A stretch of DNA of 64,000 nt from an uncultured Bacilli bacterium. GTDB lineage: Bacteria; Bacillota_I; Bacilli_A; RF39; UBA660. Positions 10,935 through 52,695 of this stretch are shown here, in pieces. Each line of letters begins with the position of its first letter. The stretch's first letter is position 1. Both the position numbers and the translations under genes were made by a program. The stretch spans positions 132,501 to 196,500 of the forward strand of contig CAKOOJ010000002.1 of NCBI GenBank assembly GCA_934098385.1. Reading direction: 5' to 3'. The notes below the pieces were generated by a model that saw only the letters and a program-made list of their open reading frames with translations, was not told where the DNA came from and did no database searches.

Positions 10935-10981
10935 TTGTTAATAACCTTGATTAATATATTCTAAAATGTTATTATTTATAC

Positions 10982-11059
10982 GTGCAATTAATGTTTTTAT
11001 AAACTGGTCAGGACAGGAATGTAGCAGCCATATTAAATAATGTTAATGTGCACTTTTTT
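10982..11059 (+). ncRNA. ffs: Small (4.5S-type) signal recognition particle RNA
   Basis: Domain IV core GGTC-AGG-ACA-GGAA-TGT-AGCA-GCC at 11006-11029 matches the E. coli 4.5S apex GGUC-AGG-UCC-GGAA-GGA-AGCA-GCC (GNRA loop plus conserved internal loops). A closing 14-bp helix pairs GTGCAATTAATGTT (10982-) with AATGTTAATGTGCAC (-11053), followed by TTTTTT. Confidence 0.8.
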
Positions 11060-11072
11060 AATGGAGCAAATC

Positions 11073-24986: not shown

Positions 24987-25343
24987 GGGGTCGTAATGGT
25001 TTCGACAGGATATGTTTCTATCTAACTGCAAGTGGTGTGCTATTCCTTAATTAGCAACCAGTTTAAATTAACTGACAAAACATTTAATAATAACGCTTTA
25101 GCATTTGCCTAATTTGGCAATAAAGCACTTTAATCTTATTTGCTTATAGGTTTGATTAGGGTTCATATATATAAGATATATCAATTGTTTTGTTTAGGAT
25201 AATTGATGAATATTTATAAACTATATTAATAAATAGGATTGTTAGACTCTTTTTTATTAATGAATAATTTGTTCTAACTAAACTTGTAGATGTTGGATAA
25301 GAAAGTATTTTGGACGTGAGTTCAATTCTCACCGGCTCCACCA
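24987..25343 (+). ncRNA. ssrA: tmRNA (SsrA)
   Basis: 5' GGGGTCGTAATGGTTTCGACAGG and 3' GGACGTGAGTTCAATTCTCACCGGCTCCACCA form the tRNA-like domain. Tag reading frame 25074-25112 is GAC AAA ACA TTT AAT AAT AAC GCT TTA GCA TTT GCC TAA, giving (A)DKTFNNNALAFA. Track ORF 25156-25362(-) lies inside it and is spurious. Confidence 0.93.
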
Positions 25344-30421: not shown

Positions 30422-30495
30422 TGGAGGACCCAGTCGGATTTGAACCAACGATCAGGGAGTTGCAGTCCCATGCCTTACCACTTGGCTATGGATCC
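30422..30495 (-). tRNA. tRNA-Cys (GCA), CCA encoded
   Basis: Reverse complement is GGATCCATAGCCAAGTGGTAAGGCATGGGACTGCAACTCCCTGATCGTTGGTTCAAATCCGACTGGGTCCTCCA. It has a 7-bp acceptor stem, anticodon loop CUGCAAC, and T-arm GTTGG-TTCAAAT-CCGAC. Minus-strand promoter TTGACT-17-TAAAAT at about 30556-30528. Confidence 0.93.
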
Positions 30496-46646: not shown

Positions 46647-49205
46647 TTACTGAGCTTTTATTTTTTGTTGTTTTTTCTTGATTACTAAATAAGTTATGGT
46701 AATTATTAGTGTTGTAATACTTATAGATATACCTATATCTAAATTGTTAGGGATATATTTTAATTCTATGTTGTTTTTTCCTTTTTTTAAATCAAATCCT
46801 AATAGACTATCATTAATTTTATAAGTTTTTATTTCTTTATTATTTGAATATACTTTCCATCCTTTGTCATATGGTATTGAAGTATATATTGAAGTATCAT
46901 CTATAAGAGTAATGTTTCCTTTTATATTATTTTCTTTAAAATTAGTAATATTTATTTTCTTTGAATTTAATGTGTTATAGGCTTTTATAAATTTATTGTT
47001 ATCTATGGTGTAAATATCTATTTCTTCATTTAAAAATGATTTATAAGATACATATATTTCTATATTGTTGTCATTGGATATTGTATTTATTATATATTCT
47101 TCATCATAAGAATTACATTCTTTAAATGATTTATTTAATTTGAGTTGTATATCATTAATATTAACATCATTTTTGTAATATATTTTATCATTTATTATAA
47201 TGTAGTTAATAGATGAATTATTTGAGTATAAATATATATTATCAAATTCATTTATATAATTATATTTAACTAATGTTTCTTTTTTATTTTGTGAAATTAT
47301 TTCTTTATTGTTAAGAGTTAATCTATGAAATACATTCTCTATATTTGTTCCATAATTTATAAAATCATTTTGATATTCTATTGGATTAATAAAATTATTA
47401 GTCCATTTTTTTATTGATTTATTTATACCAAACATTAATCCTGTTGTGTAATTAAATTTATATGTTAAAGTATTATTTTTGTTTAATTCTAAATTATATC
47501 TTTTATTATCATTATTTTTTCCAATCGTATATTTTATATCAAACATTAAATCGTATACTGGAGTATTTTGTTTATAGTAATAACTATTGATTCTGTTTCC
47601 TGGTTGTCCTAAATCATTATTTAATTCTGCTAGGTTGTTATATGCCATTGATGTAAATGTACTTTGTCCGTAATAGTTATACCATGCTCCATCATTAAGA
47701 GTTAGTATTGTGTTTTTTTCTGTTCTATAAAATAGTTCATTATCTTTTTCTTTGATTTCACTTATACTTTCATGTACGTTATTGTATGTTGAATAAAATT
47801 CATCTATATATTGTAAAATATCCCAATTATGATTTACTGATATTACACATTCGATAGAACATACTATTATAAATAAAAGTGTACTTAAATTTTTAAATTT
47901 TGGATAGAAATGATATAGGGTATAGATTAAGAAATAAGTTGATATTAATAAATAATTTATTGTTATCATATTTGATGTTATATTGTTATATTTTGTTAGG
48001 TATACAAATGTTATAAACAATAAACAAATAACATATGTTATTAATACTTTTATAAATGATATTTCTTTTATATTTTTGAGTGAATAAGCACTTATTAATA
48101 TAAGTATAAAACTATATATAAATGAATATCTATATGGCAAATCATTTGGAACATGGAATGCGTGCCATATATAATCTAAAGGAGCAACATAAAATGAAGT
48201 TAATAAGAATGTAAGAATTAATGTGTATACTATTTTTCTTTTAATGTTGATTTTTTTATTAAGTAAGAATAATAAATATAATTCTATAGAAAGTATTCCA
48301 CATGATATGTTTGGAGCATTTGATATGTCTGATGCAAATACTGTTTTTGTTATTCCAGTTAAATGATTTTTGAAAAAATTAATTATAGTGAATGCATAAT
48401 ATTGTTTTGTTGGAATAGTTCCCATAGTTGCATTTGTACTTTTTAAAGATTCATACATTGGTATTAGTTCAAATGCTAATAGTAATCCAGAAACTAAAGA
48501 ACATAATGCAAATTTTAAACATTTTTTTGATATATTTTTAATGTTAAATTTTTTTGTTTTAATTATTAAATATGATAGAAAATATATACATGAATAAATA
48601 CATGTCATATAACCTATAAAATAATTTGTAAACAACATTAATGTTAGAGATAGTGTGTATAAAACTCCATTATCTTTATTAATTATATTTTCTATACCTA
48701 ACGTAATTAAAGGAAGAATATACATCCCATCTAACCACATTATATTCCAATAATATGCTGTAAAGTATGCTGAATATCCGTATAGAAGTGCTATTCCTAT
48801 CATATATAATTTGTTTGTATTAAATTTTTTATGTATATAATATGAGCATGTTATACAAGATAATATACTTTTTAAACCTATTATTATTGAATAAGACATT
48901 ATAATATTTCTTCTTTTGAATAAAAAAATTATTATATTTAGTGGTGATGATAAGTAATTAAAAAAGTTTCTGAAATATGGTAGTCCTAATCCTGTATTAA
49001 AACTATAAATAATGTTTGCACCTTTTTTTATTCTGTCGTATAGTTCTGCTAGCATGGGTCCGTATTGATGAAAGAAATCTATTGTTAGAAGTGAATTTTT
49101 ACCAAATGGTGCAACTTTTTGTAAAATGTATATTGTAGATATTATTGATATTCCTAATATAAATACAGCTATTAAATATCCATATTTTTTTAAAAAGTTT
49201 TTCAT
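46647..49205 (-). CDS. YfhO-family polytopic membrane protein (putative glycosyl carrier/transferase)
   Basis: About 850 aa. N-terminal multi-TM region with the FFHQYGPMLAELYDRIK pattern typical of YfhO, large extracytoplasmic C-domain, terminal TM. ATG at 49205 after AGGTGG. Confidence 0.75.
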   Translation of the reverse strand: MKNFLKKYGYLIAVFILGISIISTIYILQKVAPFGKNSLLTIDFFHQYGPMLAELYDRIKKGANIIYSFNTGLGLPYFRNFFNYLSSPLNIIIFLFKRRNIIMSYSIIIGLKSILSCITCSYYIHKKFNTNKLYMIGIALLYGYSAYFTAYYWNIMWLDGMYILPLITLGIENIINKDNGVLYTLSLTLMLFTNYFIGYMTCIYSCIYFLSYLIIKTKKFNIKNISKKCLKFALCSLVSGLLLAFELIPMYESLKSTNATMGTIPTKQYYAFTIINFFKNHLTGITKTVFASDISNAPNISCGILSIELYLLFLLNKKINIKRKIVYTLILTFLLTSFYVAPLDYIWHAFHVPNDLPYRYSFIYSFILILISAYSLKNIKEISFIKVLITYVICLLFITFVYLTKYNNITSNMITINYLLISTYFLIYTLYHFYPKFKNLSTLLFIIVCSIECVISVNHNWDILQYIDEFYSTYNNVHESISEIKEKDNELFYRTEKNTILTLNDGAWYNYYGQSTFTSMAYNNLAELNNDLGQPGNRINSYYYKQNTPVYDLMFDIKYTIGKNNDNKRYNLELNKNNTLTYKFNYTTGLMFGINKSIKKWTNNFINPIEYQNDFINYGTNIENVFHRLTLNNKEIISQNKKETLVKYNYINEFDNIYLYSNNSSINYIIINDKIYYKNDVNINDIQLKLNKSFKECNSYDEEYIINTISNDNNIEIYVSYKSFLNEEIDIYTIDNNKFIKAYNTLNSKKINITNFKENNIKGNITLIDDTSIYTSIPYDKGWKVYSNNKEIKTYKINDSLLGFDLKKGKNNIELKYIPNNLDIGISISITTLIITITYLVIKKKQQKIKAQ

Positions 49206-49419
49206 AAGTACCACCTAATTAAAATTATATAATATAGGTTATTTTTATTCAATTTTTTATTTGTCTTTTTTTGTTTTATTTTGATAAGTTTTTAGAAGTT
49301 TTGTCGAATGACTTTATTTTATTATTAGATTGTATTAGTATAACAAACCGAACGTCTGGGTTGATGTCTGCCTTACTAACTGAATTAATAAAGAGTAAAA
49401 GTAGTAAGGTGGTGATATT

Positions 49420-49494
49420 GTGTTCAAAAATTTAGAAAAATTTATGAATAGAATCATTGTTATTTTAATATTACTCTTCTTGGATAAAGAATAA
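49420..49494 (+). CDS. Candidate type I toxin: 24-aa hydrophobic peptide MFKNLEKFMNRIIVILILLFLDKE
   Basis: GTG start 5 nt after AAGGTGGTGA. One TM-length hydrophobic core with charged ends. Unlisted because it is below the track size cutoff. Confidence 0.5.
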   Translation: MFKNLEKFMNRIIVILILLFLDKE

Positions 49495-49502
49495 TTAAAT
49501 TA

Positions 49503-49586
49503 AAATAAAAACATCCGCCACTCAGTTAGGACGGATTTCTACTCTCAGGGTAGACATCTAACCTACAGGGGGTAGACGTTCTACTT
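49503..49586 (-). ncRNA. Candidate antisense antitoxin sRNA 1 (about 85 nt)
   Basis: Minus-strand promoter TTGACA (49621-49616)-17 nt-TATTAT (49598-49593). Minus-strand-only intrinsic terminator: hairpin over 49512-49537 followed by TTTTTATTTTA. Fully complementary to the 3' region of the peptide mRNA. Confidence 0.5.
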
Positions 49587-49798
49587 GATTAAATAATAGC
49601 ATTTGATATAGTGATTGTCAAATGTTTTTTTATGTAGATTTTACTAAAAATGTAGAAATATGATAAGTTTTTAGAAGTTTTGTCGAATGACTTTATTTTA
49701 TTATTAGATTGTATTAGTATAACAAATCGAACGTCTGGGTTGATGTCTGCCTTACTAACTGAATTAATAAAGAGTAAAAGTAGTAAGGTGGTGATATT

Positions 49799-49873
49799 GT
49801 GTTCAAAAATTTAGAAAAATTTATGAATAGAATCATTGTTATTTTAATATTACTCTTCTTAGATAAAGAATAA
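49799..49873 (+). CDS. Candidate type I toxin copy 2 (identical 24-aa peptide)
   Basis: Same RBS and GTG start. The only coding difference from copy 1 is TTG to TTA (Leu to Leu). Confidence 0.5.
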   Translation: MFKNLEKFMNRIIVILILLFLDKE

Positions 49874-49881
49874 TTAAATTA

Positions 49882-49966
49882 AAATAAAAACATCCGCCAC
49901 TCAGTTAGGACGGATGTCTGACCAACAAAGGTAGACATCTAACCTACAGGGGGTAGACGTTCTACT
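49882..49966 (-). ncRNA. Candidate antisense antitoxin sRNA 2
   Basis: Minus-strand TTGACA (50002-49997)-18 nt-TATTAT (49978-49973). Terminator hairpin CATCCGTCC...GGCGGATG (49891-49916) followed by TTTTTATTTT. Confidence 0.5.
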
Positions 49967-50021
49967 GATTAAATAATAGCATTTATTGTATATAGTTGTC
50001 AATTAATAATGGAGGGTTTTG

Positions 50022-50354
50022 ATGAAAAATAAATTACAGATAATTAATAAAATGTATCATGATGAAAGTATTAGAACTTATATTGTATTAGAAGATAAAA
50101 AGTATTATATAAGTATATATGATGTTGTATTAAAATTAACTAATTATAAAAATATACAATCTTTTATAGTACGTTTAAAAAAGAAATTATTATTAGAACA
50201 AAACAAAGTTGTTTATAATTTTAAAACTTTTAATTTAGTAAAAAAAGGAGAAGGTAGGTATAAGAAAACTGAAATGATAGATTTTGATAGTTTAATAATT
50301 ATATTAGATTATATTCCTGTTAGAAATAAGGAATATGTAAAAGAATTTGAGTAG
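50022..50354 (+). CDS. Small protein with Bro-N/DinD-like N-terminal domain (weak by-eye similarity)
   Basis: ESIRTY..EDKKYYISIYDVVLKLTNYKN fits the Bro-N pattern IR....g..wf...Dv...Lgy.n. RBS GGAGGG. Confidence 0.35.
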   Translation: MKNKLQIINKMYHDESIRTYIVLEDKKYYISIYDVVLKLTNYKNIQSFIVRLKKKLLLEQNKVVYNFKTFNLVKKGEGRYKKTEMIDFDSLIIILDYIPVRNKEYVKEFE

Positions 50355-50411: not shown

Positions 50412-50642
50412 ATGAATTATAAATTTAAAGAAATTGAGGTGTTTTTTATAAATAGTGAAAAAATTGTTAAAATTTATTCAAAACCTTCTAATGGTGATTT
50501 TGTAGTAGCTGAGGATAAGTTAAATGATTTTTTAAATGTTAAAAGTGATGAAAATATTTTAAATATTATTAGGAATGAAGAAACTATGCCTACTAACATT
50601 AAAGTGAAGGTGTTGCGATATAAAAATGACAATTCTAGATAG
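50412..50642 (+). CDS. Hypothetical 76-aa protein
   Basis: ORF only; no recognisable motif. Confidence 0.3.
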   Translation: MNYKFKEIEVFFINSEKIVKIYSKPSNGDFVVAEDKLNDFLNVKSDENILNIIRNEETMPTNIKVKVLRYKNDNSR

Positions 50643-51975: not shown

Positions 51976-52695
51976 ATGGTTATTAATGATAGTTTTATAG
52001 ATAAAAATGGAAAAAAATATGATGGTGTGATAGAGAAAGCTTTTGAAAAAGATGAATTATTTGATATTGGTAAATTTAAACATCAAACTGAAAGGGAAAA
52101 AACTGTCTTTGGAAAAGAAAATGGAGTTTATATTTATCAAGATATAGAAAATGATAATTTAGCTTATAGAATTTATGATGAATTTGCAGAATATGGTTTT
52201 AATGGATATCATGATGATGTACTAATTTATGAATTAAATAAAAGAAGAGAAAATGTAAAATTAACAGATTTTCCCAATGGTATAGTTACGTACAATGGCA
52301 ATATTATTGGACAAATAATTCCTTATTATCCAAATAGTGAAACTATATTTAGTTATGCAAAAGAAACTAATAATATTAATATAATTAAATATTATAGAAG
52401 AATGCTTGATATTTTAATAGAACTTTATAATAATGGTATTATTTATTGTGATGCTCATGCTAAAAATTTTCTGATAGTAAATAATAAAGTTAAATTGATA
52501 GATTTTGATTTTTCTTTGATGGATTTTAATAATTATAAATATAAATATGAAAATATGATAAATACTTTTATCGGTATGGTGAATACTTTAAATGAAATAA
52601 TTAACGTTTCTTATAAAGTTAGTTATAATGATATTAGGGATTTACATGATATTGAAGAAGTTGTTTTAGAAATGGAGAAAAAACTAATCAAATAG
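51976..52695 (+). CDS. Protein-kinase-like fold protein (Kdo/RIO/APH-like)
   Basis: Catalytic-loop-like CDAHAKNFLI and metal-binding LIDFDFS; no N-terminal Gly-rich loop recognised. Confidence 0.45.
   Translation: MVINDSFIDKNGKKYDGVIEKAFEKDELFDIGKFKHQTEREKTVFGKENGVYIYQDIENDNLAYRIYDEFAEYGFNGYHDDVLIYELNKRRENVKLTDFPNGIVTYNGNIIGQIIPYYPNSETIFSYAKETNNINIIKYYRRMLDILIELYNNGIIYCDAHAKNFLIVNNKVKLIDFDFSLMDFNNYKYKYENMINTFIGMVNTLNEIINVSYKVSYNDIRDLHDIEEVVLEMEKKLIK

Follow-up and report, generated by a model that had tools for sequence, protein, structure and literature searches.

What do two near-identical tandem repeats encode when they fill a gap in which no gene is listed? The question is raised by a stretch of 64,000 nucleotides from an uncultured Bacilli bacterium (contig CAKOOJ010000002.1, positions 132,501 to 196,500 of the forward strand; the whole stretch is referred to here as the window). 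A 0.8-kb gap in it, in which public gene calls on identical contigs list no gene, separates the gene of a YfhO-family membrane protein (46647-49214, minus strand; Pfam E = 5e-150) from a 110-aa orphan gene (50022-50354) and holds direct repeats of ~323 bp at 49282-49604 and 49661-49984. Each repeat is probably a chromosomal module resembling toxin-antitoxin (TA) systems of type I, belonging to a previously undescribed family, and the probability of this reading is put at roughly 0.65. The same interpretation had been offered in a preliminary description of the locus, and it is supported by the coding constraint on a 24-codon open reading frame (ORF), the conservation of an antisense promoter and terminator, the preservation of pairing in a clamp that joins the two ends of the messenger, the fixed loci that the module occupies and the lack of any known family into which it would fall. 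Toxicity, neutralisation, the transcription of both RNAs and the nucleases involved are what we infer, and 'candidate' is the right word for the module.

In each copy the putative messenger consists of a leader, which can pair either with the 3' untranslated region (UTR), forming the clamp, or with the Shine-Dalgarno (SD) sequence, followed by the SD sequence itself, the ORF and the 3' UTR. A convergent promoter on the other strand would produce a small RNA (sRNA) antisense to the 3' UTR. The parts of the two copies are as follows.

49313-49344, plus strand: putative weak mRNA promoter of copy 1, with a -35-like TTTATT at 49313-49318 and a 17-nt variable spacer
49336-49341 and 49339-49344, plus strand: overlapping -10 candidates TAGTAT and TATAAC of copy 1, seen in the sequence
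49350-49374, plus strand: 5' clamp arm of copy 1, from the RNAalifold consensus and pair counts
49368-49378, plus strand: anti-SD CUGCCUUACUA of copy 1, made up of the 3' part of the 5' clamp arm and leader bases downstream of it
49406-49415, plus strand: SD sequence AAGGTGGTGA of copy 1, in which AGGTGGT is invariant in 14 copies
49420-49494, plus strand: 24-aa ORF MFKNLEKFMNRIIVILILLFLDKE of copy 1, the candidate toxin, with a GTG start and a TAA stop
49502-49586, minus strand: predicted antisense sRNA of ~85 nt, copy 1, with ends placed by its promoter and U-run
49547-49581, plus strand: 3' clamp arm of copy 1, inside the region covered by the sRNA
49593-49621, minus strand: sRNA promoter TTGACA-17-(TGc)TATTAT of copy 1, from a consensus scan
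49600-49631, plus strand: possible weak intrinsic terminator after copy 1, a hairpin followed by T7
49692-49723, plus strand: putative mRNA promoter of copy 2, identical to that of copy 1
49729-49753, plus strand: 5' clamp arm of copy 2 with the anti-SD, from folding and pair counts
49785-49794, plus strand: SD sequence AAGGTGGTGA of copy 2, seen in the sequence
49799-49873, plus strand: 24-aa ORF of copy 2, with a product identical to that of copy 1
49881-49966, minus strand: predicted antisense sRNA of copy 2, from folding and the consensus structure
49928-49962, plus strand: 3' clamp arm of copy 2, from RNAalifold and pair counts
49973-50002, minus strand: sRNA promoter TTGACA-18-(TGc)TATTAT of copy 2, from a consensus scan

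The reading frame and its family

The repeats have a period of 379 nt and are about 97% identical, with alignment blocks of 259 nt at 99% identity and of 37 nt and 19 nt at 100%. Both the tandem arrangement, which the preliminary description had placed at these positions, and its observation that the divergence between the copies is concentrated in the patch 49537-49549 are borne out by self-comparison and pairwise alignment, the latter showing a few single differences in addition to those in the patch. In each repeat AAGGTGGTGA is followed, four bases on, by a GTG-initiated ORF of 24 codons; the products are identical (MFKNLEKFMNRIIVILILLFLDKE) and the sole coding difference between the copies is TTG/TTA, so that the strong ribosome-binding site (RBS), the GTG start and the purely synonymous difference that had been described are all seen in the sequence.

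Relatives of the repeat were found by scanning a genome collection with the 20-mer CCGCCACTCAGTTAGGACGG, a pattern inside the sRNA terminator, which gave 11 loci in five metagenome-assembled genomes (MAGs) titled 'uncultured Bacilli' or 'uncultured Tenericutes'. Window and scan together yield 14 distinct full-length copies, two copies with the 3' (sRNA) part only and three that are cut by contig ends, one of which is identical over its length to the copy of the MAG UMGS1124. The preliminary description had named conservation of the frame in related genomes as a check, and intact frames are what the homologue comparison finds in 14/14 full-length copies. All but one have 24 open codons, and the remaining one has 25 after a 1-nt deletion near the end which changes the C-terminus to ...LDKDN. 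The start codon is GTG in six copies and ATG in eight, with no other, and is preceded by AGGTGGT throughout. The peptide variants are ..KLLN.., ..LDKDN and the 24-aa MFKNLKQLINRIIIILILNILNKD, the last of which is encoded by the most divergent lineage (L016/L020, at locus type B below).

Between the main type and L016 the ORF has accumulated 21 substitutions, which are distributed over codon positions 1, 2 and 3 as 7:1:13 (chi-square p = 0.006) and amount to six synonymous and nine non-synonymous codon changes; the proportion of differing sites is 0.83 for synonymous sites (pS, saturated) and 0.19 for non-synonymous sites (pN). No indel falls inside the ORF, while the leader loop, the spacer between SD and start and the region after the stop codon each carry indels. 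Judged from these alignments, the 24-aa ORF is coding and under purifying selection at the protein level. The N-terminal half of the peptide is basic and amphipathic and is followed by a core of 10 Ile/Leu/Val/Phe residues (residues 12-21, mean hydropathy 4.0) and a D/N-K-E/D tail, with a grand average of hydropathy of 0.8 for the whole; the peptide has the character expected of a type I toxin, that of a genuinely coding, small hydrophobic peptide of <60 aa. The three variants match no family at E<=10 in Pfam and NCBIfam and the peptide has no match in PHROG or PDB, searches which have low power for such short queries, and a full-text literature search for the peptide strings returns no paper. 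The remark that the peptide resembles no recognised toxin agrees with the outcome in these four collections. Two other frames were set aside as by-products: a 44-54-aa plus-strand ORF over the leader, whose N-terminus is radically variable and which is truncated in L016/L020, and a 29-40-aa minus-strand ORF, whose starts shift and which the predicted sRNA does not reach before it terminates.

The copies occupy a small number of locus types. At type A the YfhO gene is followed by one, two or three tandem copies and then by the 110-aa gene or truncated forms of it; at type B a single copy stands between mnmG-rsmG-parB and a membrane protein; at type C a single copy adjoins a Fur-family gene; and type D is an sRNA-only copy at a contig end. 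The related MAG UMGS1124, reached via the 110-aa neighbour, carries a single copy at 92% identity, and the same neighbour leads to gut metagenome contigs of the same species, most of which break inside the repeat. Most public contigs with the downstream gene end in this way (L001-L008, L010, L012, L013, L027-L029), and short contigs with homologues of the 110-aa protein give 3' fragments only. As tandem copies break assemblies, the copy numbers in MAGs may be underestimated. Searched by nhmmer with the family profile, neither the window nor any of the fetched loci yields additional copies, blastn against phage and plasmid collections gives only a 35-nt chance match, three pattern scans of viral contigs, one of them with a degenerate back-translation of the peptide, give 0 matches, and a metagenome scan with YAGGGGGTRGACGTTCTACT returns the UMGS1124 contig again and nothing else. 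The repeats form a low-copy family of chromosomal paralogues with tandem amplification and are no dispersed mobile repeat.

The antisense RNA gene and the folded messenger

The minus strand of each repeat carries a promoter, TTGACA-17-TATTAT (49621 to 49593) in copy 1 and TTGACA-18-TATTAT (50002 to 49973) in copy 2, which agrees with the consensus at 11/12 positions and has a TG extension. The form TTGAC[AT]-17/18-TGnTATTAT is present on this strand in 17/17 copies that include the region, a count that takes in both sRNA-only copies and the fragment L010, which comes from a more distant relative; a short fragment, L029, has TACCAT instead of TATTAT and keeps the key T-A...T positions. The spacer sequence differs freely between locus types, and such a pattern, in which the hexamers stay constant and the spacer changes, marks a working promoter. 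On the minus strand GUUUUUAUUUU comes after a hairpin complementary to 49513-49536, which has no T-run on the plus strand, and the stem of this hairpin comprises nine pairs, including U.G, on the minus strand versus seven on the plus strand. The consensus-scan program called no terminators, the hairpin being bulged and its loop exceeding the program's limit. A near-consensus minus-strand promoter and a terminator hairpin with a T-run in the minus direction only had both been claimed from the window alone, and both hold across the family.

The predicted sRNA is ~85-90 nt long, folds with z-scores of -3 to -4.7 and consists of a 5' stem-loop, an unpaired hypervariable linker (complement of 49537-49549) and a terminator stem-loop (complement of 49513-49536) with a U-run. 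Its 5' stem shows one compensatory change from U-A to C-G in the L016/L020/L021 lineage and a change from G.U to G-C in two copies. The sRNA would be fully complementary to the 3' UTR of the mRNA, including the 3' clamp arm, and has no overlap with the ORF, as its U-run (complement of 49502-49511) lies at least ~8 nt past the stop codon at 49492-49494. The antisense RNA gene that a type I system requires, with a product complementary to the mRNA of the toxin, is predicted in this way in 17/17 copies. In Rfam there is no match at the gathering threshold; cmscan of 49100-50200 on both strands at E<=10 returns only chance matches to snoRNA (small nucleolar RNA; eukaryotic and archaeal) and eukaryotic long non-coding RNA models, and the covariance models of the known type I antitoxin RNA families in Rfam do not match.

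Two copies, L021:1812-1916 (minus strand) and L022:64-155, retain the sRNA promoter, 5' stem-loop and terminator intact and have no peptide gene. L021 represents the same parB-proximal locus at which L016 and L020 carry the full module, and lacks ~215 nt from just past the parB terminator to just before the sRNA terminator, with the sRNA gene intact. Such surviving antitoxin-only copies fit toxin-antitoxin logic. The asymmetry between sRNA-only and toxin-only copies is no evidence in itself, because a scan pattern located in the sRNA terminator could not find toxin-only copies.

On the plus strand, CTTTA[TA][TA] and TA[GA]TATAAC are kept across locus types around a spacer that varies, and the -10-like TATAAC (49339-49344) to which the preliminary description had drawn attention is invariant in 14/14 full-length copies. 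Transcription of the mRNA would begin at about 49346-49350. Further upstream, at 49282-49335 (and 49661-49714), the block AAGT[TA]TTG[TC]CGAA[AT]..CTTTA is kept in all locus types including the divergent L016/L020, and might serve to bind a regulator or act as an UP-like element. The region 49270-49350 has no significant fold (z = -0.2), which fits promoter DNA rather than a part of the RNA. The hairpin with T7 after copy 1 (49600-49631) overlaps the sRNA promoter and has no equivalent after copy 2. A possible plus-strand terminator of this kind is found after internal or stand-alone copies and is absent from the last copy before the 110-aa gene, so that the mRNA of copy 2 may read into that gene.

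The 250-nt plus-strand RNAs of the two copies fold with z-scores of -4.9 and -5.9, and 0/200 shuffles are as good. RNAalifold applied to the 14 mRNAs (alignment A2) predicts an interrupted helix of 25 bp, the clamp, between leader columns 6-30 (49350-49374) and 3' UTR columns 207-242 (49547-49581). Three nested helices had been proposed for this messenger, of which the first (49350-49357 with 49574-49581) and the second (49363-49372 with 49549-49558) turn out to be parts of the one 25-bp helix. For the third (49376-49383 with 49522-49529) the complementarity exists, between the leader segment CTAACTGA and the loop of the terminator hairpin in 12/14 copies, a loop which is invariant by construction of the search pattern; the helix itself is absent from the minimum free energy (MFE) and consensus structures and has no covariation support, since the only two changes seen (L011, L014a), both in the leader, break the pairing.

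In the clamp, 99.4% of 349 cells are standard-paired, a share that drops to 29-47% on shifting the 3' partner by 1-3 columns. Variation is seen at ten of the 25 pairs, nine of which keep pairing: one is changed on both sides, from U-A to C-G, and eight are changed on one side only, each creating or removing a plus-strand G.U, while the tenth is broken by a transversion common to two near-identical copies. There are no A.C mismatches among these changes, where about half would be expected for neutral transitions. Strand-specific G.U without A.C argues for selection on the plus-strand RNA and against inverted repeats maintained at the DNA level. In the consensus structure as a whole there are five compensatory pairs with a change on both sides, a number that 1/500 shuffles reach.

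A second state, which the preliminary description did not mention, emerges from the MFE structures of single sequences, in which helix 1 is kept and leader positions 24-34 (CU[G/A]CCUUACUA) pair with UAGUAAGGUGG, which is the SD; four pairs of this anti-SD:SD helix vary and 4/4 are still paired. The full clamp costs 0-9 kcal/mol relative to the MFE, and in these models the mRNA looks bistable, with one leader segment shared between the 3' UTR and the SD. The SD is predicted to be paired in every state (probability unpaired 0.01-0.16), and opening the segment from SD to start would cost 8-10 kcal/mol with the clamp enforced versus 12-17 kcal/mol with the 3' UTR blocked, in 14/14 copies; the sRNA-bound state is thus predicted to tighten SD occlusion by 4-8 kcal/mol. 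A simpler switch, in which the SD would be open as long as the clamp holds and shut only by sRNA binding, is only partly borne out, the SD being occluded in all predicted states. Like the mRNAs of type I toxins, this messenger is, by its predicted structures, built to restrain translation.

Mechanism, alternatives and surroundings

If the module is a type I TA system, its weak plus-strand promoter would give rise to a ~240-290-nt mRNA for the 24-aa peptide, which would be membrane-active and harmful when overproduced. The mRNA would be locked by pairing of its 5' leader with its own 3' UTR in the 25-bp clamp or, in a near-isoenergetic alternative, by pairing of the leader anti-SD (CCUUACUA) with the SD (UAGUAAGG), and as one or the other pairing would form, the RBS is occluded in every predicted state. 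The strong convergent promoter would provide an sRNA of ~85 nt perfectly complementary to the 3' UTR, for which two effects can be envisaged. The ~85-bp duplex may be a substrate for decay by a double-strand-specific RNase, as with RatA and SR4, and the leader may be evicted from the clamp, leaving the anti-SD to close the RBS more tightly, a second action resembling that of SR4. Should the analogy with hok and aapA1 hold, opening of the messenger would need some processing or a co-transcriptional window.

A more specific version of this scheme, which is tentative and would not be our first expectation, regards the leader as a colinear mimic of the antitoxin sRNA: both would compete for the same 3'-UTR sites, and the antitoxin, instead of masking the RBS or the ORF, would evict the leader so that the anti-SD shuts the RBS, in addition to duplex decay. 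The leader blocks GAACGUCU, GGUUGAUGUCUACCUU and CUAACUGA do occur in the same order in the predicted sRNA, the second block shared by the leader (49345-49383) and the sRNA (49502-49586, minus strand) being GGUU(A)GAUGUCU[G/A]CCUU. The first two shared blocks follow from the clamp. The third is the terminator loop of the sRNA, is needed by neither the MFE nor the consensus structure and may stem from an origin by inverted duplication or from a loop contact. If true, the eviction model would amount to a riboswitch-like logic with three states, of a kind that has been described for no type I family, set in the shortest Gram-positive-type toxin known and confined to an uncultured gut Bacilli lineage.

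Several observations weigh against the type I TA reading. The consensus scan does not call the plus-strand promoter, which is weak; the hydrophobic core of the peptide, with only 10 residues (~14 with flanks), would make a short membrane span and is interrupted by Asn in the divergent variant; and no translationally active form appears among the predicted states of the mRNA, the SD being occluded in all of them. The number of pairs changed on both sides is not exceptional for the clamp alone, where 149/500 shuffles reach the count, and divergence is limited, all five double compensatory pairs coming from L016/L020 and representing about one evolutionary event each. The invariance of the hairpin and the absence of toxin copies without an sRNA are partly artefacts of ascertainment, because the scan pattern lies inside the sRNA terminator. 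The main alternative, which we consider unlikely, is a non-toxic small membrane or regulatory protein with a physiological role, tuned by a cis-antisense RNA and a structured mRNA: the in-silico evidence shows a translated and tightly regulated ORF and not toxicity, the hydrophobic stretch is short, and the loci are stable and chromosomal, by housekeeping genes such as parB and fur. Against it stand features that are typical of type I toxins, namely the tandem amplification to 1-3 copies with paralogues at several loci, the strong antisense versus weak sense promoter, the two-fold occlusion of the SD and the survival of sRNA-only copies.

The sRNA region is the most conserved part of the repeat (17% of columns differ between the main type and L016, versus 30% in the ORF) and the sRNA-only copies L021 and L022 keep promoter and terminator, as would be expected if the minus-strand sRNA were the primary gene, with a product that regulates in trans, and if the plus-strand ORF were there by chance or as a remnant in decay. 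This is improbable in view of the coding periodicity of the ORF, its pN far below pS, its length and start kept in 14/14 copies, its conserved SD and a leader whose plus-strand pairing with the 3' UTR is under constraint. The probability is lower still for a miniature inverted-repeat transposable element (MITE) or other mobile repeat, the terminal inverted repeats of which would mimic the 5'/3' helix. Inverted repeats flank an internal segment of ~190 bp, several copies occur per genome and metagenome assemblies break at the repeat, but the copies sit at the same three or four loci across species and are not scattered, homology runs ~65 nt upstream and ~40 nt downstream of the inverted segments, nhmmer detects no further copies in the 64-kb window or the fetched loci, phage, plasmid and viral collections give no matches, and the mismatches of the arms are almost exclusively plus-strand G.U with no A.C, a signature of selection at the RNA level. 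The preliminary description had named a high-copy MITE-like element as an outcome that would overturn its reading; what is observed is a few fixed loci, and the combination of marks expected of such an element, with inverted repeats at its termini, target-site duplications and many dispersed copies, is not found. No more probable than a mobile repeat is a cis-regulatory leader (an attenuator or leader peptide) for the downstream 110-aa gene. Such a role would suit the YfhO locus, where the last copy has no plus-strand terminator and lies ~55 nt upstream of the start of the gene, but full copies downstream of parB and by fur have no 110-aa homologue following them, and in several species the gene is truncated to 65-86 aa with the element upstream intact.

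The 110-aa gene had been described as Bro-N-like, a label that is not supported, as its product has no Pfam match at E<=10. The AlphaFold model of the protein is too poor for a fold search (predicted local distance difference test score, pLDDT, of 41), and the only match is to phrog_15286, a phage protein family of unknown function (E = 6e-8). The segment from the element to ackA is an island that varies between genomes. In the window it contains two orphan genes, of 110 aa (50022-50354) and 76 aa (50412-50642); at L014:2890-7753 it holds a 1531-aa FtsK/SpoIIIE-family protein, which may be EssC-like and part of a type VII secretion system, preceded by an 86-aa ORF; and at L015:2609-5382 an XRE-family helix-turn-helix gene and six paralogous genes of ~120 aa. 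For a 239-aa protein conserved by ackA (51976-52695), the match to protein-kinase and ABC1 domains is weak and falls below threshold. A gene like those of TrwB/VirD4 type IV coupling proteins flanks the fur-linked copy of one MAG (L019:6645-7550), suggesting the insertion of a conjugative element beside the module. Elsewhere in the window a transfer-messenger RNA (24987-25343, tag DKTFNNNALAFA), a small signal recognition particle RNA (10971-11068) and a tRNA-Cys (30422-30495) are ordinary housekeeping RNAs, and confirm a bacterial chromosomal context.

Comparison with known type I systems

Homology is a poor guide to type I TA systems, which are known from a narrow range of organisms. T1TAdb lists 24 type I TA families, and type I antitoxin RNAs account for 13 families in Rfam (PMC8594479); the systems are known from Proteobacteria, Firmicutes and Tenericutes (PMC12390103). 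Type I systems in Firmicutes-related lineages are unsurprising in themselves. In Pfam and NCBIfam none of the known type I toxin families (Fst, Ldr, Hok, TxpA, Bsr, Ibs, ShoB, TisB and others) gives a profile hidden Markov model match to the window peptide.

The bsrG/SR4 and txpA/RatA systems of Bacillus subtilis resemble the window module in combining the mRNA of a small hydrophobic peptide with a convergent antisense RNA at its 3' side, which is the more strongly promoted of the two. Their toxins are longer, with 38 aa for BsrG and 59 aa for TxpA (24 aa in the window). To our knowledge a 25-bp clamp between the 5' and 3' ends is not a described feature of bsrG or txpA mRNAs. According to PMC3834814, SR4 both promotes the decay of bsrG mRNA and blocks its translation; the SD of bsrG already lies in a short helix, which is extended from 4 to 8 bp when SR4 binds at the 3' end. 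The calculated cost of opening the SD in the window module changes in the same direction. For RatA, PMC3531473 describes an antisense duplex that leads to double-strand-specific decay. For the TxpA and BsrE/G/H families T1TAdb records that the antisense RNA extends over the ORF as well (PMC8594479), which is not the case here, where the sRNA ends past the stop codon. There is no sequence or family relationship between these systems and the window module.

The long-distance 5'-3' pairing of hok/Sok (the fbi-tac fold-back) and AapA/IsoA has its counterpart in the conserved 25-bp clamp. Full-length hok and aapA1 mRNAs are closed by 5'-3' pairing and translationally inert, with alternative or metastable anti-SD structures (PMC6733600, PMC9841398). 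Both systems are Gram-negative, their mRNAs are activated by 3' trimming and their antisense RNAs act at the 5' side, unlike the sRNA here, which is complementary to the 3' UTR only and would target the 3' clamp arm itself. They have no sequence relationship to the window module.

In Fst and SprA1, as in the window module, the peptide is short and its C-terminal tail charged, and the SD is sequestered by a structured 5' leader. The Fst/RNAII system (par of Enterococcus faecalis) and SprA1/SprA1as are also of Gram-positive type and have a convergent antisense RNA at the 3' side without ORF overlap (PMC8594479). Their productive interaction, made through 5' repeats or a 5' domain, falls outside the overlap (PMC8594479), unlike here, where it would lie within the overlap; the sRNA has the same sense as the leader and so cannot pair with it. 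Neither the peptide, in Pfam and NCBIfam, nor the RNA, in Rfam, matches these families. Ibs (18-19 aa) and ShoB (26 aa) are in a length class similar to that of the window peptide. Ibs/Sib and ShoB/OhsC of E. coli also have an Ile/Leu-rich core and tandem multi-copy loci. Sib covers the whole Ibs ORF and OhsC is divergent and non-overlapping (PMC8594479); both systems are Gram-negative and have no detectable homology to the window module.

A well-delimited candidate for a new family has thus been found, from sequence alone, in uncultured, AT-rich Bacilli of the human gut, with comparative evidence behind each of its components. In practical terms, metagenome assemblies are broken here by the tandem repeats, and the ORF escapes gene callers. 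The module would join two motifs that usually occur in separate families, a 3'-side antisense RNA and a 5'/3' clamp of the hok/AapA1 type, and the simple prediction that arises is that sRNA and leader compete for one target in the 3' UTR. It is classified as a candidate new family within the type I TA systems, with the predicted layout of the Gram-positive families that have a 3'-side antisense RNA.

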